Assembly (NCBI GenBank): GCA_000934665.2
Contig: KZ538416.1
Coordinates: forward strand, 1 to 64,000
Length of the DNA: 64,000 nt
Source: Catajapyx aquilonaris
Taxonomy: Eukaryota
Direction of reading: 5' to 3'
Positions 30,156 through 53,798 of the stretch are shown in pieces (position 1 is the first letter of the stretch; each line of letters begins with the position of its first letter). A program made the translations under genes and the position numbers. The notes under the pieces were generated by a model. The model did not search any database. It was given only the letters and a program-made list of their open reading frames with translations, and had not been told where the DNA came from.

Positions 30156-30551
30156 CAATTGTCCCTCGTCGGAGCCTTCTCCGTCAATGTGAAACAGCAC
30201 TCACCTTTTCCTCACTTGCAATGAGACTTACTGGCCTAAGTTTATACCTCATATTTTCCCTTCTCGTGCAACCATATTTGATGATAATGCAGATGCTCCA
30301 CAAGCTTCTGCAAGCTTTCTACAGTGTCTTGCTGTAGGCCCTCTGGCATTTAAAAAAATAAGTTTTCAAATTTTAAAACTGTGAATAGACTATAACTAGT
30401 CGCAAAGACTACCAATCTTCTGTTTACTTCTCATGCACATGTTGGCTTGTGGTGTGACCTTCATGGTAAACTCTTGCTCCTCGTTACATTTGTTGCAGAT
30501 ATTGTACCCAAAGGAAGGTGTCAATAAGCTATACTCATTGCATTATTCCAG

Positions 30552-31261
30552 AGGATGGCCAACACTTTTTGGACCGTCTGGTGCCACTCGCTGACCTGCA
30601 ACGGATGATCCTGGGCCAGTCATATACCTTCCATGGATGCACAGGTCAAGCAACATACTTTCCACCCCTTCTACCAGACGCATCTATGGAATGGAAGTGG
30701 CGCAGTCTGGAGGAGGTGTGCATTTTCCGAAAGCCTTCTGATGTTGAATTTCGGTTAGTAATTTGCAACATTTCAAGCCAGCTTCGAAAATTGGCAGTTG
30801 GATTACTGGAACAGACTGGATCATTTGCACTTCTGTCACACTGCACATCCCTGAATGAGCTGCATCTCGTGAATGCTAAGAAGATGGATGACCAAGGACT
30901 TCTGAGTGGTGTTGGCTCCTTGCTTGAACTGAAGCACCTTACTATGCGGTGTCTAACCTCCACAACAATATTTGGTCTGAATCAATTCTGGAGTCGTCGC
31001 CAAGTAGTTGGAAATCTTGAAAGCTTGGACATGTCCTACAGTCATTGCGTGACAGACAATGTTCTGTCGCTGGTAGTCAGGAGTTGTCCCAGATTGAAAC
31101 ATGTATCCCTTGGAGGATGTCACAAGATCAGTGGCGCAGGCCTAAAGTGCCTTGTAGCAGGCTGCCCGGAACTTTTGCGTGTTGATCTCTACAAGTGTCA
31201 ACTAGATGATCCCTACTTGCTTACTGAACTGAGGCCAGACCTTCAGGTGAACTTAATATAA
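30552..31261 (+). CDS. F-box/LRR-repeat protein, exon 3 (AMN1/cysteine-containing LRRs) to stop
   Basis: Phase-1 acceptor TTATTCCAG|AG fits exon 2; LRRs NLESLDMSYSHCVTDNVL, CPRLKHVSLGGCHKISGAGL and CPELLRVDLYKC; TAA at 31259-31261. Confidence 0.85.
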
Positions 31262-35453: not shown

Positions 35454-37018
35454 GAAGAACTGCAACATGGTCCCGTAGAATGGGGGGACTTCAGACAATG
35501 GCGTGAAATCAAAGGCTTACACTTTTCTTTGCTTGGGTCAGTGTGGATACTTATTAGGAGACCAAAAAAGCTGTTTTTCAAGGGTGTTGGATGGAGTGGG
35601 TTCGAGAGCTGCAGAATAGAACATGAGCAAGCCAGATGCACAGTGAGAGTACTGTACTTCTTGCACACACTCATTCCCCAACTCAAAAAGAGTTACTCAG
35701 AGGCCTCCTGGGAGGGTCGGGAGTGAACCCGGCTATAGTTTCTATATTTGTGACTCGCAGGAGATAATGTGAACCTTTTGATTTCCATTATGAACAGGTA
35801 TTTTCTTTGAAGGGAGACAAAAATCCCTTCCGTTTCCGCATTGGACAGGTTCCGTTATACTCGTCAAAAAATGCATTGCATGCCCTATGCATATGCCTGT
35901 TCCAGGAAAATATTCTGCCATGGATAGGTTTCCGCTATACCCAGGGTCCGCAATTGGCAGATTTCATTGTACTTTGCTGCACAGACTGTTATTCCAGTGC
36001 AGTTACTTTTGGAACACCTGTATAGGTCTGCCACAATAATATTTTTTGCTGCTGTCTCAGCATGTACTACTCATAATTATGTATTTTTTAAATTATTACA
36101 ACTGCATGAGTTTCCATTTCGTAAACAAACATATGCGAGGCTAATTTTTCACAACATATTTTCATTTTTTCCCATTTATTATTACAAATGCATGAATTTT
36201 ACATATTTTTCATAAACAAACTTAAGCTAAGGTGATTTGTCCAACCTTTTTTTCATTCTTCTCCTTTTTTTCTGTATATTACAACAAGCTCGCAAGTTTT
36301 CATTTCATACATAAACCAACTTAAGATGATTATTGTCCAACCACTTTCAATTTTTCCTCCTCTTTTCCATACATTACTACAAGAGCACAGGTTTTTCAAT
36401 TTCATATAAACAAACTTAAGCTAAGCTGAGTTTTGTGCAACTTTTTTTCCAATTTTTTCTCCTTTTTTCTGTATATTACTACAAGAGCACAGGTTTTTCA
36501 ATTTCATATGAACAAACTTAAGCTAAGCTGATTTTTGTCCAACTTTTTTCTTTCACTCTTCTCCTCTTTTCCATACATTACTACAAGAGCACAGGTTTTT
36601 CAATTTCATATAAACAAACTTAAGCTAAGCTGAGTGTTGTGCAACTTTTTTTTCCAATTTTTTCTCCTTTTTTCTGTATATTACTACAAGAGCACAGATT
36701 TTTCAATTTCATATGAACAAACTTAAGCTAAGCTGATTTTTGTCCAACTTTTTTCTTTCATTCTTCTCCTTTTTTCTGTATATTACTACAAGCTCGTAAG
36801 TTTTCATTTCATACCTAAACCAACTTAAGATGATTATTGTCCAACCACTTTCAATTTTTCCTCCTCTTTTCCATACATTACTACAAGAGCACAGGTTTTT
36901 CAATTTCATATAAACAAACTTAAGCTAAGCTCAGTGTTGTGCAACTTTTTTCTCCAATTTTTTCTCCTTTTTTCTGTATATTATATTACTACAAGAGCAC
37001 AGGCTTTTCAATTTCATA

Positions 37019-37465
37019 TGTGACCGGAACGAGTACACATACAAACTGGGCTCCATTGTAAAGTTGGTTTATTCAGAAAAACGTGTCGTACAATTGCGTC
37101 AGGGAGACAGGAATGGTTAAACAGTTAAGAGAGTGATTTGGTAGGGAGCAAATGACCAGCCCTCGGGATATTCTCCCGAGGGACTGATCTGGAGCATCAC
37201 TGGCCTGTTGGTTAAATAGTTGGTTATGACATAGTGCATGATGGGTATAATCCTGGGTATAAGGATGAGACGTCATAAACACGCTATACGATGGATAGAT
37301 AACATGCATATAGGGGTACATACAAGTGATAACAAGACAGGAGAAATGCTACACTTCAATGGGTCTCTTCAGGTGGTATAATGGGGGAGGTATCAATATA
37401 GGAAATTGGACCTGGACAGTGAAAGGAAAGGTCATTAAACCTTTCTTGAAAATGATAAGGTCACA
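37019..37465 (-). repeat. 3' LTR (447 bp)
   Basis: TG...CA ends with 7-bp terminal inverted repeats; minus-strand TATTTAA (~37212-37218) and AATAAA (37068-37073). Confidence 0.9.
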
Positions 37466-37630
37466 CACCTCCGACCGAAGATGCTTCCCACCCGGCAATG
37501 GTTTGAAGACAGGTTCTAGTAGATTTATACACTCACAACTGGTATCCACAAAATAAATAAATAGGACTGTCTGATGGGGCAATGGTTCCCCGTCCAAAAG
37601 AACAAAATAGAGATGGGTTGGTTATGAACG

Positions 37631-38185
37631 TTACACATCGTGCCCCTCGATTTCGGGTGTAACCCCCACCGATGGTTGTGGAGGGTCAAAAGTATTGCTC
37701 GCTACAGACGCTTCGACTACTGGTTCGAATGTGGGGTTGTTAAACATTTCAACGTGCATAGAGAATGCGACAGGGTCCCCCGCGCCGTCGGATGGGATGG
37801 CCCCCACCAATAATTGTCGGCTGATATCGATAGAACATTCCCAATACCTCAAGAAATCAAGTCCAAGAATCACCGGACTTGCTGATGATGATATGATGTA
37901 CAGCCTCTTCAGGTACACGTGTTGGTCCAAACATAAGGGTAGGGTCATCTCTCCAAGCGGCACAATAACATGGCCGTCCGGGGTTGCGAGTCGTACTTGA
38001 TCACACAGTCGAATAGCGGGTCGCAAGTCGTCTGGAATACGATGTATCACGTTGGTTGACACGAGGGATGCTGCGGCTCCAGTACATAAAGCTGCCCTCC
38101 AGGTACGTCCATAGATGGATACTTGTATCGAGGCAGCGGCACGCCAGGCATCGATTGAACCGGTTAAGTTCAAAAAGAGTGACAT
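37631..38185 (-). CDS. Retropepsin-like (Gypsy aspartyl protease fold) protein, 184 aa, catalytic Asp replaced by Cys
   Basis: Intact ATG-to-TAA ORF; IQVSIYGRTWRAALCTGAAASLVS fits the (A)LxDTGAxxSLIS motif, and PVILGLDFL fits the ILGxDFL motif. Confidence 0.8.
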   Translation of the reverse strand: MSLFLNLTGSIDAWRAAASIQVSIYGRTWRAALCTGAAASLVSTNVIHRIPDDLRPAIRLCDQVRLATPDGHVIVPLGEMTLPLCLDQHVYLKRLYIISSSASPVILGLDFLRYWECSIDISRQLLVGAIPSDGAGDPVAFSMHVEMFNNPTFEPVVEASVASNTFDPPQPSVGVTPEIEGHDV

Positions 38186-38257
38186 CCTTCGGTGGCTGTG
38201 AATGCAAGAGTCTCGAGCACGCCAGGCACAATCAGTTCATGAATCCAGCGCCTCTTC

Positions 38258-38265
38258 TTTTTATA
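38258..38265 (-). promoter_or_regulatory. Candidate internal TATA box for the protease-like ORF
   Basis: Minus strand CGTATAAAAAGAAG, ~75 nt upstream of the ATG at 38185. Confidence 0.4.
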
Positions 38266-38820
38266 CGGCACACATCCACACACACTAACACAAATTTTCG
38301 TCATCCTTCCCAAAATTGTCTCCAATGGGACAAATTAAATGCGGGGCCAGTTGGTGGCTGTTTTACCGTCAACTACAATACCTCATAGATAGAATGTAAG
38401 TCCAATGTTCGGCATCCAAGATCCGGAACTGCATCACCCCAATTTCAAATAGGGGTAACAAGGGGGGAAAGAATGGTACATACTATTCACGTCATCTCAA
38501 ACGTGTAAAGGGTCAAACCCATAGTAAAAAGGGGTCCAAGGTCCCCACCACTCAGTTACATTCAAATCAGGTTACCGCCGGAAGGGCGTTGTGGGTCTAG
38601 CTATCCACGCTATCGCAAACGTGAAAAATGGGTGAATCCCATAGCTAAAAAGAAAAGGGCCAATGTGGGGCCCACCCCACATCGCAAGACAAAAGGGATC
38701 GTCTCAGTTGTTGATAGAGACGATCACTCCTACAACATGGTTAAATCACTCCAACTAAATGTCACATGTAACAAACACATGGGGTTCGGCTTTAAAGAAG
38801 GAAAAGGTATATGCTCATAG

Positions 38821-39051
38821 CGTAGGACAGGGAAATGTCTCAGCAGATTTGCCTACAGCGGTGAGGAGGGGTAAAAGGAAATTGTCACGTTGCGTAGGAC
38901 AGGGAAATGACTCAGCAGATTTGCCTACAGCGGTGAGGAGGGGTAAAAGGAAATTGTCACGTTGCGTAGGACAGGGAAATGACTCAGCAGATTTGCCTAC
39001 AGTGGTGAGGAGGGGTAAAAGGAAATTTGTCACGACAGAGCAGGGAAATGT
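38821..39051. repeat. 72-bp tandem repeat (3 copies plus a partial) in the element leader
   Basis: CGTAGGACAGGGAAATG...TTGTCACG units start at 38821, 38893 and 38965. Confidence 0.9.
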
Positions 39052-39217
39052 CAAGCATATGTGCTCATGGAAAATAGTACTTCAAAGTACGTCATATGTA
39101 GACTGGGCCAGCCGTACGGCACCATGTCATTCATAAGTGTCATTTTAAAGACACTCCATTCCCGATATGGAAATGGCACACGTTATGTTGTTGAGACAAC
39201 AGTTTACAATGCATCGG

Positions 39218-39235
39218 ATCCCACTTCTGACACCA
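39218..39235 (-). promoter_or_regulatory. Primer-binding site complementary to the tRNA-Leu 3' end
   Basis: Minus strand TGGTGTCAGAAGTGGGAT, 8 nt inside the 5' LTR; complementary to ...ATCCCACTTCTGACACCA of eukaryotic tRNA-Leu(CAA). Confidence 0.85.
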
Positions 39236-39243
39236 TTTTTATA

Positions 39244-39689
39244 TGTGACCGGAACGAGTACACATACAAACTGGGCTCCATTGTAAAGTTGGTTTATTCA
39301 GAAAAACGTGTCGTACAATTGCGTCAGGGAGACAGGAATGGTTAAACAGTTAGAGAGTGATTTGGTAGGGAGCAAATGACCAGCCCTCGGGATATTCTCC
39401 CGAGGGACTGATCTGGAGCATCACTGGCCTGTTGGTTAAATAGTTGGTTATGACATAGTGCATGATGGGTATAATCCTGGGTATAAGGATGAGACGTCAT
39501 AAACACGCTATACGATGGATAGATAACATGCATATAGGGGTACATACAAGTGATAACAAGACAGGAGAAATGCTACACTTCAATGGGTCTCTTCAGGTGG
39601 TATAATGGGGGAGGTATCAATATAGGAAATTGGACCTGGACAGTGAAAGGAAAGGTCATTAAACCTTTCTTGAAAATGATAAGGTCACA
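39244..39689 (-). repeat. 5' LTR (446 bp)
   Basis: Near-identical to 37019-37465; adjacent to the PBS. Confidence 0.9.
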
Positions 39690-40611
39690 CATATAAACAA
39701 ACTTAAGCTAAGCTGAGTGTTGTGCAACTTTTTTCTCCTTTTTTCCGTATATTTCTACAAGAGCACAGATTTTTCAATTTCATATGAACAAACTTAAGCT
39801 AAGCTGATTTTTGTCCCAACTTTTTTCTTTCACTCTTCTCCTCTTTTCCATACATTACTACAAGAGCACAGGTTTTTCAATTTCATATAAACAAACTTAA
39901 GCTAAGCTGAGTGTTGTGCAACTTTTTTTTCCAATTTTTTCTCCTTTTTTCTGTATATTACTACAAGAGCACAGATTTTTCAATTTCATATGAACAAACT
40001 TAAGCTAAGCTGATTTTTGTCCAACTTTTTTCTTTCATTCTTCTCCTTTTTTCTGTATATTACTACAAGCTCGCAAGTTTTCATTTCATACCTAAACCAA
40101 CTTAAGATGATTATTGTCCAACCACTTTCAATTTTTCCTCCTCTTTTCCATACATTACTACAAGAGCACAGGTTTTTCAATTTCATATAAACAAACTTAA
40201 GCTAAGCTGATTTATGTCCAACTTTTTTTTCCAATTTTTTCTCCTTTTTTCTGTATATTACTACAAGAGCACAGGTTTTTCAATTCCATATAAACAAACT
40301 TAAGCTAAGCGGATTTGTGTCCAACATTATTTTCAATTTTTTCTCTTTTTTTCTGTACATTACTACAAGTGCAGAAGTTTCAATGTCATAAACAAACTTA
40401 AACTAAGATGACTGTTGTCAATTTTTTTTGCAACTTTTTTTTTCTCCCGATAACATTGATGACCATACTTATGTACTTATATATACAGAGTACACACTGA
40501 ACCTTCATCATCTAGTAAGGCTGACATACCCCCCATTATACTAACTTAAAAATAACAACCTTAAGCTTAGTTGTTGATAGAATTACATGCCAATCTTAGA
40601 AAAGTGAAACT

Positions 40612-50034: not shown

Positions 50035-50481
50035 CGTAATTGGGTCATTCCATGTCAAGACAGACAACTTGGTGGCTCGACCATCTCATAATTTGATATA
50101 AAAATCATTGAAGTGTTGCCAAAAATAAAGTTAAGAGCCTCCCAGGTGAAAATCCCACGGAGATATGGCAACGTCTTTCAGCAACTGTGGAGCCGGATTC
50201 GAAGGTCCATTTATTTCAGGTGAAATTATTGTTGTACCCTCATGTTCATATTATATCAAATGAACTGTTGTGAGATGAGGAACATTTTGTGGCAACATGT
50301 TTAACCTAGATTGTAAAATAAAAATGCTAAAAAAATCGCATTATTGTGCAAAACGGACATATTTCACATGGTCGAATGTCATTGTTAAATACATGCTAAG
50401 CGTGTGGAATTAATATGGTAGGTACATTGCCATCTGATCATCAGTAGTCATTACTACTGCAGGACAACATCAAGGTCAAGC

Positions 50482-52837
50482 CATCTGACCAAGCCAGAGA
50501 AAAATATGTGGCAGAAAGGAGACTCTATAAAAAACTATTAGCTGCAAAAAAGAAAAAATACTTCTCAGAAACCCTGAGGCAACAATTATTAAGTACGGTA
50601 GAACCAAAGAGTTTCTGGAAAATAATAAAACAAGCAAAGAGGTATGCACCTAAAATAGACTTGGACAAGGAAAAATGGTGGGAGTACAACAAAAAATTAC
50701 AAGAGAGAAACGCCTCAAATCTAATCCCCCAAATCGTCAATTTTGGTACGTTTGAAGATCCGATGCTAGACCACATTTTAACGTTTGAGGAATACGAAAT
50801 AGCAATTAAGAAATTAAGGCCTAAATCCTCTCCAGGGCCAGACATGGTGCCAAATACTTTATTACTTGTGAAAGCAGAATGCCTTCATGATAATCTATTC
50901 ACTAAATTGAAAAATTACTTAGAAAGCAGGCAAATACCGGATGGATGGATACAAGCCAAAATATGCCCGATTTATAAAACAGGAGACAAAGAGGACCCAG
51001 CAAACTACAGACCAATAACTCTTTTTAACAATACTCTTAAAATTTTCACTTCCATTATAAACAACAGGATCAGGATATGGGCAGAAACAAGCGGAATTTT
51101 TCCTGAATGGCAAGCAGCATTTCGCAAAGGCAGAGGATGTGCAGACCACTTATTCACCCTGCATGTACTGACCCAAAAATATCTAAATAAACCTAAGGGC
51201 AAACTCTTCGCTGCATTCATAGATCTATCAAAAGCTTTCGACTCGATTGGACATAATATGTTATTACAAAAATTAAACTCTATAGGCTTTAGCTTCAAAA
51301 CCTTAGAATTAATTAGACAAATTTACCTTAAAATGGAAATTGTGGAAGACTTTGAAACAAAAAACCCAATCAGAATAACAAGAGGAGTTCCGCAAGGAGA
51401 ATCACTTAGCCCTACCTTATTTAATCTGTATATGGCAGACCTAGATACCTTTCTACAGCAAAGAAATTGCAAAGGAGTTAATTTTGGAAGCGGATTAAGA
51501 GAAATCAGAATACTAGCGTATGCAGATGACCTCATTCTTTTAGGAGATAACCCCCTCTATCTGCAGGAAAATATAAATGCATTACGAGAGTATTTTGAAG
51601 CGCAAGAACTCCAAATAAATCTTAAAAAAACAAAGATTATTTGCTTCAGAAAAGGAGGTAGACCACCAAATAAAGCTTTTTATTGGCACTCCGAAAAAAT
51701 AGAAATGGTATCGTCATATACATATTTGGGCATAACACTCAAGAGCTCCGGAAAATTTATTTTAGCTGCTGAACAACTGAAAAAGAAAGCACTCTCTGCG
51801 ATAAACGGACTCTGGCCTATATTGATAAATTTAAAATTACGAGACATACATATTGCTATGAAACTTTTCCATACCCATATCACACCGATAATAATGTATA
51901 ATGCACATATTTGGGGTCCAAACCACTTAGACACGATAAACCAGGTACAAATTTTCTTTATAAAAAAATTCCTAGGACTCCCACGAAATGCAGCGAATTA
52001 TTTTGTCTACTTGGAAACAGGGATTTTGCCATTAACTGCTGTATTAATAAAATCAATAATCAGAAACATGGAAAAGATAATAAACCTGGACGATCAGAGG
52101 CTAGTGAAAGAAGCCTATAATTATTCTTTGAAAACTAATTCAGATAAGCCATTATTAAGAGAAAATTGGATATACACTTGTAAAAACCTAATTCAAAAAA
52201 ACGGAGTGAACTGGTCAGATATCTTTTCGGACATGGCCATTATTGCTGAAAAGATAAACGCGACCCAAAAGACAAATATTATGAACATACTTCAACAAAC
52301 TAGTAGATATAAATATTACAAAGAAATTAAAAATAGTTTTGAACAGGAAGGATACCTAGCTTACGGTTTGCCAATGATACAGATCAGAATGATAAGTAAT
52401 TTAAGAAATAAGTCAAAATATATACGCTTAAAGAAAGACTCCATAAAGCTGTATGATGAGGTTTTCTGTGAATGGTGTAATATGCAAGAACCGTTAACAG
52501 CACATCACATAATATACGAATGCAGATATTTCGATACGCCGAGAAAAATTAATCTGTACAACCTCCCCTCTTACCCACCGACACTTTTTCATTTTCTTTT
52601 GGAAGGATTAACAAAAAACCAAATTTTCTGTTTATATGCTTTTTTTCACAATGTAAATAAAAGAATCAACTTTTCAATGTAATCCGGGAACCTCGAAACA
52701 TCAGATAATTTGTCAAAAATTGTAATTACAAAAGTAAACTGTAAAAAAAAAAAAAATGGGTGTGTATGTGTCCCCCAATACAGGCATACGCCTGAGCACG
52801 GGGTATGAAAATAAAAATAAATAAATAAATAAAAAAT
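50482..52837 (+). mobile_element. 5'-truncated non-LTR retrotransposon (RTE-X-like), antisense in an L2HGDH intron
   Basis: 16-bp TSD AACATCAAGGTCAAGC (50466-50481 and 52838-52853); (TAAA)n tail; RT ORF. Confidence 0.9.
50508..52682 (+). CDS. LINE ORF2 reverse transcriptase (endonuclease lost by 5' truncation) with C-terminal CCHC-like motif
   Basis: KSSPGPD, NYRPITL, QAAFRKGR, FIDLSKAFD, GVPQGESLSPTLFNLY, YADD, YLG motifs; CEWC...H....C; no stops over 724 codons; no true ATG start. Confidence 0.9.
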   Translation: MAERRLYKKLLAAKKKKYFSETLRQQLLSTVEPKSFWKIIKQAKRYAPKIDLDKEKWWEYNKKLQERNASNLIPQIVNFGTFEDPMLDHILTFEEYEIAIKKLRPKSSPGPDMVPNTLLLVKAECLHDNLFTKLKNYLESRQIPDGWIQAKICPIYKTGDKEDPANYRPITLFNNTLKIFTSIINNRIRIWAETSGIFPEWQAAFRKGRGCADHLFTLHVLTQKYLNKPKGKLFAAFIDLSKAFDSIGHNMLLQKLNSIGFSFKTLELIRQIYLKMEIVEDFETKNPIRITRGVPQGESLSPTLFNLYMADLDTFLQQRNCKGVNFGSGLREIRILAYADDLILLGDNPLYLQENINALREYFEAQELQINLKKTKIICFRKGGRPPNKAFYWHSEKIEMVSSYTYLGITLKSSGKFILAAEQLKKKALSAINGLWPILINLKLRDIHIAMKLFHTHITPIIMYNAHIWGPNHLDTINQVQIFFIKKFLGLPRNAANYFVYLETGILPLTAVLIKSIIRNMEKIINLDDQRLVKEAYNYSLKTNSDKPLLRENWIYTCKNLIQKNGVNWSDIFSDMAIIAEKINATQKTNIMNILQQTSRYKYYKEIKNSFEQEGYLAYGLPMIQIRMISNLRNKSKYIRLKKDSIKLYDEVFCEWCNMQEPLTAHHIIYECRYFDTPRKINLYNLPSYPPTLFHFLLEGLTKNQIFCLYAFFHNVNKRINFSM

Positions 52838-53798
52838 AACATCAAGGTCAAGCAGACTTGGAGATAATAAATCTGAAATGTCTGAAAAAGCCCTCTATAG
52901 GCTACTCCACGTTATTTGATGTTGCGAGTGAACCATTCATGGTAAGTGAACAGTTCTTATACCGCTATGTTATGCATGAAAAGACGTTTCTGCGATAACT
53001 TAAAAATTGACCCAGCCCCACACTGAGAAAAATGACCCCAAAGATGACCAAATTAGTGGAAAACAGACATTTCAGAAGTTTTATTTCCAAGACTGCTTGA
53101 CCTGTGATGTTGTCCTTCGACAGTATAGTAATGATCAGATGACAATGTATACCTACCATATTAATTCCACACCCTTAGCATGTGTTTAACCATGACATTG
53201 GACAATATGAAATGTGTCCGTTTTGCTCAATAATGCGATTTTCTTTTAACATTTTTATTTTACAATCTAGGTTAAACCAGTTGCCACCAAAATGTTCCTC
53301 ATCTCACGACAGTTCATTTGATATCATTTATATGAATATTAAACTAACTTGTGATACGTTCTTGACCAATTTAGTTCGCATTACAAGTTGGGTGCAATAC
53401 TGCCCTGAGCCATTTTTTCACACGCGGCCACCTTATTTTGTCAATTCTTAGAGTGGGTGGTGCATCATCATCATCATAATAGCACGTAAATGTTCCTTAT
53501 TAGTGCCTTGTATATTGGGGTAGAAATGAAAATTGTCCCATGGAAAATGTGATTTATGGGTCATCTCGAACTTTCAAATGCGTTTTTCTCGAAATCAGGT
53601 TTGGGAGGGTTAGGGCAGTATTGCACCGACCCCTTCAACTGTTATTAGCTCTTGATGATAGTAACACTACTTCTGGATAAATTATTACCAGGCTGACATG
53701 CTTCATGGATGACCCCTTTTGTGCTTGAGTGCTGTGGTGTATAACATGTCCAATTAGCATGATTAAAAAGCATATATATTCCAAGAAGTTATCCATAC

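Follow-up and report, generated by a model that had tools for sequence, protein, structure and literature searches.

The window, by which we mean the whole 64,000-nucleotide stretch of DNA that was analysed, contains a young LTR element of 2,671 bp (37019-39689, - strand) whose sole gene is an open reading frame (ORF) for a protein of predicted retropepsin fold. The features of the element and its insertion site are as follows.

36212..40445 (36212-37014 and 39694-40445), no strand: 102-bp satellite array, the insertion target of the element; contigs that join 37014 to 39690 represent the empty unit
37015..37018, + strand: left copy of the 4-bp target site duplication (TSD) CATA, read from the sequence
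37019..37465, - strand: 3' LTR, 447 nt, which pairs with the 5' LTR
37466..37493, - strand: purine-rich tract before the 3' LTR, a weak PPT, with the same ending as in the autonomous element L068
37631..38185, - strand: stand-alone retropepsin-fold ORF, 184 aa, with a short N-terminal arm, a protease fold at about residues 15-149 and a disordered tail
37850..37870, - strand: ILGLDFL, the distal retropepsin motif, whose Asp is invariant in 27/27 stand-alone ORFs
38084..38086, - strand: TGT, coding for Cys34 at the position of the catalytic Asp (C-T-G-A), within ALCTGAAASLVS, read from the sequence
38258..38265, - strand: TATA box of the inferred internal promoter, TATAAAAAGA, 80 nt upstream of the A of the ATG
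38820..39035, no strand: tandem array of three 72-bp units within the 5' part of the internal region, which is non-coding
39218..39235, - strand: primer binding site (PBS) of tRNA-Leu type, complementary to the 3' end of the genomic tRNA-Leu(CAG) gene in L085
39244..39689, - strand: 5' LTR, 446 nt, with TG...CA ends, identical to the 3' LTR except for one 1-nt indel
39690..39693, + strand: right copy of the TSD CATA (4 bp), read from the sequence

All cis parts of a Ty3/gypsy element are present, namely paired TG...CA LTRs, a TSD, a tRNA PBS and a purine tract (weak), and a contig of run X4 is without even the single LTR indel. The tRNA end that matches the PBS gave 11 pattern matches in the genome; three loci were examined, and ARAGORN called one of the three tRNA-Leu. 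Across the 1.77-kb internal region, pol is matched by its protease part only; no similarity to gag, reverse transcriptase (RT), RNase H or integrase was found, and an Rfam search over the element gave 0 matches at E 0.1. The element is non-autonomous and dependent on autonomous gypsy helpers. A contig of run X5, from a second sample, reads satellite-LTR-satellite over window positions 39241-39719 and may represent a solo-LTR allele; it was not counted as bridging because it has under 31 letters on each side, and low-depth X5 coverage of 37701-37949 was not used.

The minus-strand frame is open from 38236 to 37631 (201 codons), and translation from the ATG at 38185 gives 184 aa. The earlier note had described a retropepsin whose catalytic DTG had become CTG in an intact frame, with a Cys codon at least two changes from Asp, an intact distal ILGLDFL and a TATA-like box about 75 nt upstream of the ATG. 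Each of these readings holds: TGT at 38086-38084 is two substitutions away from either Asp codon, ILGLDFL is read at 37870-37850, and the TATA box begins at 38265, 80 nt before the ATG. The hydrophobic-hydrophobic-G-x-D distal motif is thus present (ILGLDF) and the catalytic D-[ST]-G absent (C-T-G). Contigs from runs X1 and X4 match 37937-38868 with 0 differences, although they come from the same sample as the likely source of the assembly and are not independent of it.

Searching Pfam with the ORF gave matches to gag-asp_proteas (E 0.0016) and RVP_2 (E 0.002), both under the curated cut-offs (19.5 vs 28.2 bits and 18.4 vs 20.3 bits). An AlphaFold2 model built from a 19-row alignment has a mean pLDDT of 79.6, with the residues after about 150 predicted to be disordered. 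The top Foldseek matches of this model are the retroviral-protease-like domain of Ddi1 (E 5e-7) and then HIV-1 PR (E 4e-4), and VIA-align superimposes 115 residues on Ddi1 (Z 15.1, rmsd 2.6, 16% identity); a PDB sequence search returned weak Ddi1 matches only (E 0.11 or worse). The fold proposed at the outset is thus recovered by sub-threshold Pfam matches and by two structural comparisons, and the model indicates a protein of retropepsin fold that, by its motif, is not an active retropepsin.

A DNA search of the genome gave three matches, the window copy and two others with 83% and 72% DNA identity; a fourth fragment, L108, lies outside the Cys site. Both other copies retain C-T-G (TGT and TGC), one of them being frameshifted and the other interrupted by stops, and all 3/3 close copies that cover the site therefore carry Cys (TGT, TGT, TGC), as the earlier note had asked to be checked. 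Compared with the window copy, dN/dS is 0.16 (dS 0.42, p 2e-10) and 0.08 (dS 2.3, p 7e-23). At 65-86% protein identity, Cys34 is conserved no better than an average site. With Cys kept in 3/3 copies and dN/dS of 0.08-0.16, the lineage has long been selected in its Cys form, and it has been inserting until recently. That the ORF is a decaying relic, or its Cys a private mutation or sequencing error, is scarcely tenable. Pfam scores under the cut-off and the broken state of the other two Cys copies would fit a relic. Exact contigs cover the codon, the other copies also have Cys, the start and TATA box are conserved, and the selection signal (dN/dS 0.08-0.16, p on the order of 1e-10 or less) refutes the relic reading. 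In all three Cys-type copies (window 37631-37645, - strand; L002; L003) the ORF frame ends in D-V-stop after tails that differ in length and sequence; this shared C-terminus is possibly a binding or degradation signal.

The Cys-type ORF belongs to a large group. A protein search of the genome returned 79 matches and two further searches, largely overlapping with it, 84 and 68; about 70 places were fetched. We aligned 27 short, unbroken ORFs whose Met lies 24-42 codons ahead of the site; they form 21 families at 60% identity. L012 and L027 were omitted as near-duplicates, and L005, L006, L008, L010, L018, L021, L023, L025, L028, L029, L072, L086-L088, L090, L091, L096, L097, L104 and L105 as broken, truncated or Met-less. 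The genome thus has at least 21 stand-alone families, six of which have D-S-G (6/21), although seven omitted rows are D-S-G, most apparently in counted families, and the tally could shift by one to two families in that direction. Three further families (3/21) have Asp in an altered motif (DSK, DCV/DSV, DGG). The remaining 12/21 have no Asp at the site, which is occupied by C, A (four families), N, C/S, L, K, T, H or S. Asp is therefore found in 9/21 stand-alone families, compared with 7/7 pol families (Fisher p 0.01), and the T/S or G of the active loop is gone in families with A-P-G, C-P-G, D-C-V, T-N-R and D-S-K. The start Met is aligned in 27/27 rows, which were chosen for a Met 24-42 codons before the site.

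In a tree with 15 pol-embedded and 8 outside proteases, the 27 stand-alone rows form one clade (support 100/97), and in a second tree the pol side is supported at 100/100. The rows without Asp are spread over four or more separate positions within the stand-alone clade. The nearest sequence relatives of the stand-alone ORFs are the pol proteases of tRNA-Leu-primed gypsy elements in the same genome, and the clade is one that split off from the pol protease of the helpers.

One option in the earlier note, a protease of altered chemistry, which would here have Cys as the nucleophile, is highly improbable. It could draw on the presence of Cys in 3/3 copies across dS of up to 2.3, once as TGC, and on Cys in a second family (L014). 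An unchanged site is expected at 65-86% protein identity, however, and eight different residues occupy the position in sister families, with A, N, S, L, K, T and H found elsewhere. In the L014 family, the only Cys family besides that of the window, one copy at a dS of 0.06 carries Ser instead. We saw no conserved general base, and the flap is degenerate.

Thirteen stand-alone elements have a PBS and both LTRs. Their LTR identity is 95-100% in 13/13, with Asp or not (several LTRs were aligned partly), and a 4-bp TSD is readable in 7/13, the alignment having started inside the LTR elsewhere. No gag or pol remnants were found in their internal regions (0/13), and two helper Gags gave no match. 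Among 13 close pairs of ORFs, which are not all independent, dN/dS is below 0.5 in 12 and Fisher p below 0.05 in 11; the exceptions are L011-L012 (dN/dS 1.0, 8 changes) and L014-L019 (0.45, p 0.12). Strong purifying selection and an own promoter would also fit a host-domesticated gene or restriction factor rather than selfish cargo, which we consider very unlikely. Near-identical LTRs and a TSD bound the window copy, which sits within a satellite; stops or a frameshift disrupt its two close relatives, in the way that transposon copies decay once inserted; and 13 family members are young insertions. For the window copy, host domestication is largely refuted.

Several of these elements have further features. 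Short tandem arrays lie in the 5' internal region of 5/13: the window element (38820-39035), L080, L082, L043 and L044, with units of 72, 81, 68 and 26-27 bp. L046 (G000:C487:82300-89159) comprises two protease-only elements, of a D-S-G and an S-P-G family, nested or adjacent. Two related elements of the N-T-G family have a long frame that starts from the PBS (L038 2723-2016, - strand, 236 aa; L041 6253-7242, + strand, 330 aa; 76% identical), and Pfam gave no match to these long putative frames.

The helpers that the earlier note had presupposed are present. The genome (285.6 Mb) contains autonomous gypsy elements with the same PBS, which encode a CCHC Gag with a CX2CX4HX4C knuckle and a PR-RT-RH-IN pol with a GPY/F-type integrase end. 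The L067/L068/L069/L074 family shares the LTR-end spacer and purine-tract ending of the window element and is probably its likeliest helper family. A comparison of RT gave animal gypsy relatives. The TSD is 4 bp, against 5 bp in the Mag clade of gypsy; the label 'Mag clade' was dropped on this ground, and the elements are named here only as gypsy. The pol proteases of these elements (L063-L076, L092-L102) have Asp in 15/15 rows and an invariant R-x-G-D flap. Full-length L068 lacks the stand-alone ORF and the 13 stand-alone elements lack pol; for the elements covered, this rules out that autonomous elements carry the ORF as an additional gene at their 3' end.

Three observations concern the helpers themselves. 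L100 and L102 form a pol-embedded protease family with D-G-G or D-G-S in place of D-[ST]-G, which is the first branch among the pol rows. In helper pols (L033, L063, L069, L073), protease and RT are separated by a conserved domain of roughly 100 aa, for which Pfam gives one weak match at most and which the stand-alone ORFs are without. A 283-nt stretch is 95% identical between an autonomous leader (L070 internal 209-486) and a stand-alone element (L071 internal 1382-1664), and this similarity suggests a recent exchange or a shared insertion.

The TATA box is not peculiar to the window copy. TATA[AT]A occurs 55-130 nt before the ATG in 13/21 families, where 0.54 are expected from shuffles, and in control windows it occurs in 0/21 at 300 nt and 2/19 at 600 nt further up. 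An initiator-like word lies behind the TATA in six families, by a loose, author-chosen word list. Since the TATA position is common to 13/21 families, the predicted internal promoter is a family trait, which supports the TATA-like box and ATG described earlier from the window alone.

Comparing mean identities region by region within and between the two groups indicated which parts of the protein selection keeps.

Active loop: within stand-alone 0.34, within pol 0.82, between groups 0.51
Flap: within stand-alone 0.23, within pol 0.65, between groups 0.28
Core: within stand-alone 0.31, within pol 0.38, between groups 0.30
C-terminal sheet: within stand-alone 0.35, within pol 0.49, between groups 0.20
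Last strand: within stand-alone 0.34, within pol 0.30, between groups 0.13

By these identities, the catalytic loop and flap are relaxed and the scaffold is kept as in pol. The C-terminal sheet is unlike that of the helper and has conserved residues of its own: G128 is found in 21/21 stand-alone families, F141 in 20/21 and C117 in 17/21, and G128 in 0/7 pol families. The last strand was considered as a novelty, but the helper model has a short strand there too, and we regard it as re-shaped rather than new. Retropepsin dimers are formed by the C-terminal sheet together with the active-site Thr/Ser. Relaxed catalytic parts beside a conserved C-terminal sheet speak against both a Cys chemistry and the trapping of substrate in the old cleft. 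The divergence of this sheet from the helper's, with its own conserved residues, makes a self-dimer likelier than a heterodimer with the helper protease.

Dead subunits are reported to poison the dimer in HIV-1 PR D25 mutants, and the earlier note had considered a dominant-negative heterodimer, in which a dead subunit would pair with the helper protease and tune or block Gag-Pol processing. Such a subunit might serve as copy-number control like that by Ty1 p22. The window family does have an intact fold and retains T-G behind the position where Asp was lost, and the ORF descends from a helper-type protease; Ty1 p22, a trans-dominant inhibitor from an alternative transcript, is described as such in PMC4599808 and provides a precedent. 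We nevertheless hold this reading to be distinctly unlikely, as it is weakened on several sides. Likeness to the helper protease is lowest in the C-terminal sheet and last strand (0.20 and 0.13 between groups vs 0.35 and 0.34 within stand-alone), the T/S or G of the active loop is gone in several sister families, the D-S-G ORFs of 6/21 families would not poison a dimer, and blocking the helper would presumably be self-harming for an element that needs the helper's processing.

The disordered tails differ between families. Seven of the 21 have a tail that resembles a SUMO-interacting motif (SIM), with a hydrophobic core followed by a Ser/acidic run (phospho-SIM type), where 0.33 are expected from shuffles; the pattern was picked after the tails had been seen, and the families are related. 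SIMs are a loose motif, as noted in excerpts of PMC12751080. Basic clusters occur in the tails of three further families, and the tail of the window copy has neither a SIM-like nor a basic motif, likewise in 11/21 families. SIM-like tails showed no association with motif loss (1/6 against 6/15, p 0.61). Lys/Arg-rich, NLS-like tails are found in L030, L077, L078 and L086, three of these four in D-S-G ORFs, which are possibly active proteases sent to the nucleus.

Taken together, we consider it very probable that the ORF product is a free protein, made from the internal TATA promoter apart from Gag-Pol, that binds and does not cut, to the benefit of its own element. The option of a binding or scaffold protein is the best fit among those the earlier note had offered, with the catalytic parts relaxed and the scaffold under purifying selection. 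Of that note's interpretation, a selected pseudo-protease with its own promoter and a binding role has stood, Cys chemistry has not, and the dominant-negative heterodimer has lost ground. More specifically, and with a likelihood that we put somewhat short of even, the product is a putative self-dimeric adaptor or decoy against a host silencing factor, most likely nuclear.

The mechanism we propose runs as follows. The ORF would be transcribed from the internal TATA, apart from Gag-Pol, to give a free protein, which would self-dimerise via the family-specific C-terminal sheet (W115, C117, R123, G128, F141). This dimer would counter a host factor responsible for silencing the element, either as adaptor or as decoy and most likely inside the nucleus. 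Reverse transcription, integration and particle maturation would be borrowed from the helper. Because six families retain D-S-G, the ancestor was probably an active free protease, and catalysis may have been lost several times once binding sufficed. The likeliest target would be SUMO-dependent transcriptional silencing, towards which the SIM-like acidic tails and basic NLS-like tails of sister families point. We suggest this pathway because it uses SIM-bearing effectors, because viral proteins use SIMs and because transposon anti-silencing proteins exist. PiRNA-guided transposon silencing involves SUMO and SIM-bearing effectors (excerpts of PMC8490990), viral proteins use SIMs (excerpts of PMC12751080), and VANC is a known transposon-coded anti-silencing protein (excerpts of PMC6719617). 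The SIM-like tails are a hint at counter-silencing, seen as a sequence pattern in 7/21 families and lacking in the window copy. As a counterpoint, a protein that acts in trans and is made from a subgenomic RNA must be specific for its family if selection is to maintain it, and no specificity module was found in the proteins.

Phage satellites redirect the capsids of their helpers, and the ORF could act comparably as a particle-hijacking adaptor, a dead protease whose conserved C-terminal surface binds helper Gag or Gag-Pol, so that assembly or packaging is tilted in favour of the small element. Helper particles are the only thing the element needs, and several coexisting helper families could supply family specificity. 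However, the stand-alone clade is not paired off with helper families in the tree, the tails appear nuclear, and a TATA-driven RNA would presumably be without PBS and 5' LTR. Cis preference would then favour an RNA that cannot be copied. We regard this adaptor role as unlikely and the counter-silencing dimer as our working proposal.

Non-autonomous LTR elements are thought to carry nothing or leftover gag. TRIM and LARD elements are defined by having no coding capacity; the element described here has an ORF under purifying selection and is neither. The closest likenesses are partial. TR-GAG elements of plants (PMC8704663, excerpts) are likewise non-autonomous LTR elements with one intact ORF that are moved by an autonomous relative, but their gene is gag, whereas here it is a 3'-end protease-fold ORF with its own TATA box and often without the catalytic Asp. 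Gag-protease-only derivatives of ATHILA (bioRxiv 10.64898/2026.03.20.713144, excerpts) are likewise recently active, have no RT, RNase H or integrase and have kept the protease; they retain gag and protease in place after an internal deletion, whereas here there is no gag and the protease is a separate old clade. Non-autonomous Troyka elements are likewise short, helper-dependent LTR elements, described in excerpts of PMC12440569 as without functional Gag-Pol and with no protease gene named there. Troyka helpers have a CX2CX8-10HX4C knuckle and no GPF/Y motif according to the same excerpts, whereas the helpers here have CX2CX4HX4C and a GPY/F-type end and the window element has TG...CA ends and a 4-bp TSD; it is not Troyka. 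Helenus/Ajax was rejected as an identity, as excerpts of PMC10886601 mention no protease.

Other likenesses concern the protein. Ty1 p22/p18 is likewise a free fragment of a retroelement polyprotein from an alternative transcript, but p22 is Gag-derived, lies inside an autonomous element and restricts it (PMC4599808), whereas the protein here stems from a protease and is all that the dependent elements encode. VANC of VANDAL transposons offers a functional model, an anti-silencing accessory protein with short tandem motifs in the element; it belongs to plant DNA transposons and is an unrelated protein (PMC6719617, excerpts), and the anti-silencing activity here is putative. The helper pol proteases (L063-L076, L092-L102) come from elements that agree with the stand-alone ones in their PBS, in the length of the TSD and in the motifs at their ends, but are pol-embedded and have Asp in 15/15 rows. 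The best structural match, the retroviral-protease-like domain of Ddi1/DDI2, is likewise a free-standing retropepsin. In Ddi1, a host enzyme, the catalytic Asp is present, and ubiquitin-like and ubiquitin-binding domains accompany the protease. The ORF has 184 aa, protease-type Pfam matches only and a disordered tail, and it groups with gypsy pol proteases (in a tree without Ddi1); it is not Ddi1.

Outside this genome, a homologous-protein search found no relatives among 8000 candidates, a profile search of 1.84 billion representatives found none at 1e-30, and an ESM Atlas search found generic retropepsin clusters only, in libraries that may lack this animal group. Among the best 150 matches of the profile search (172 aligned stretches), the site has Asp in 164 and Thr in 1 and is uncovered in 7. 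Our literature search found no account of protease-only or dead-protease LTR elements; most subscription journals, Repbase and supplements, including that of PMC12440569 with possible listings, lay outside it. The present analysis adds a stand-alone clade that is under selection, has a predicted promoter of its own and has lost Asp repeatedly.

A lineage of more than 20 families has thus kept one selected gene, derived from a helper protease and with its own promoter, in elements that are still mobile while catalysis was repeatedly lost. This implies that the protein itself has a function where parasite, helper and host silencing are in conflict. Motifs that look active, are half broken or are dead occur on a single scaffold and also provide a natural series from retropepsin to binding protein. 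To our knowledge, hardly any anti-silencing proteins of animal retrotransposons have been described; a small soluble candidate such as this one can be tested directly. As a broader conjecture, which we judge somewhat unlikely, such elements would form a class of satellite retrotransposons with more than one origin in animals, each with an internally promoted pseudo-protease engaged in SUMO-directed counter-silencing or in redirecting the helper, and their D-S-G and dead members would be stages on the way from cleaving to binding a host or helper factor. If true, this class would be for LTR elements what VANC and the interference proteins of phage satellites are in their own systems.

Elsewhere in the window, a 744-aa reverse transcriptase ORF (50448-52682, + strand; RVT_1 E 3.7e-39) is flanked by 96-nt inverted repeats with arms at 50329-50424 and 53150-53245. 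The layout is unusual, and we presume that the element is perhaps Penelope-like. A 263-aa frame at 30470-31261 (+ strand) has weak leucine-rich-repeat matches.
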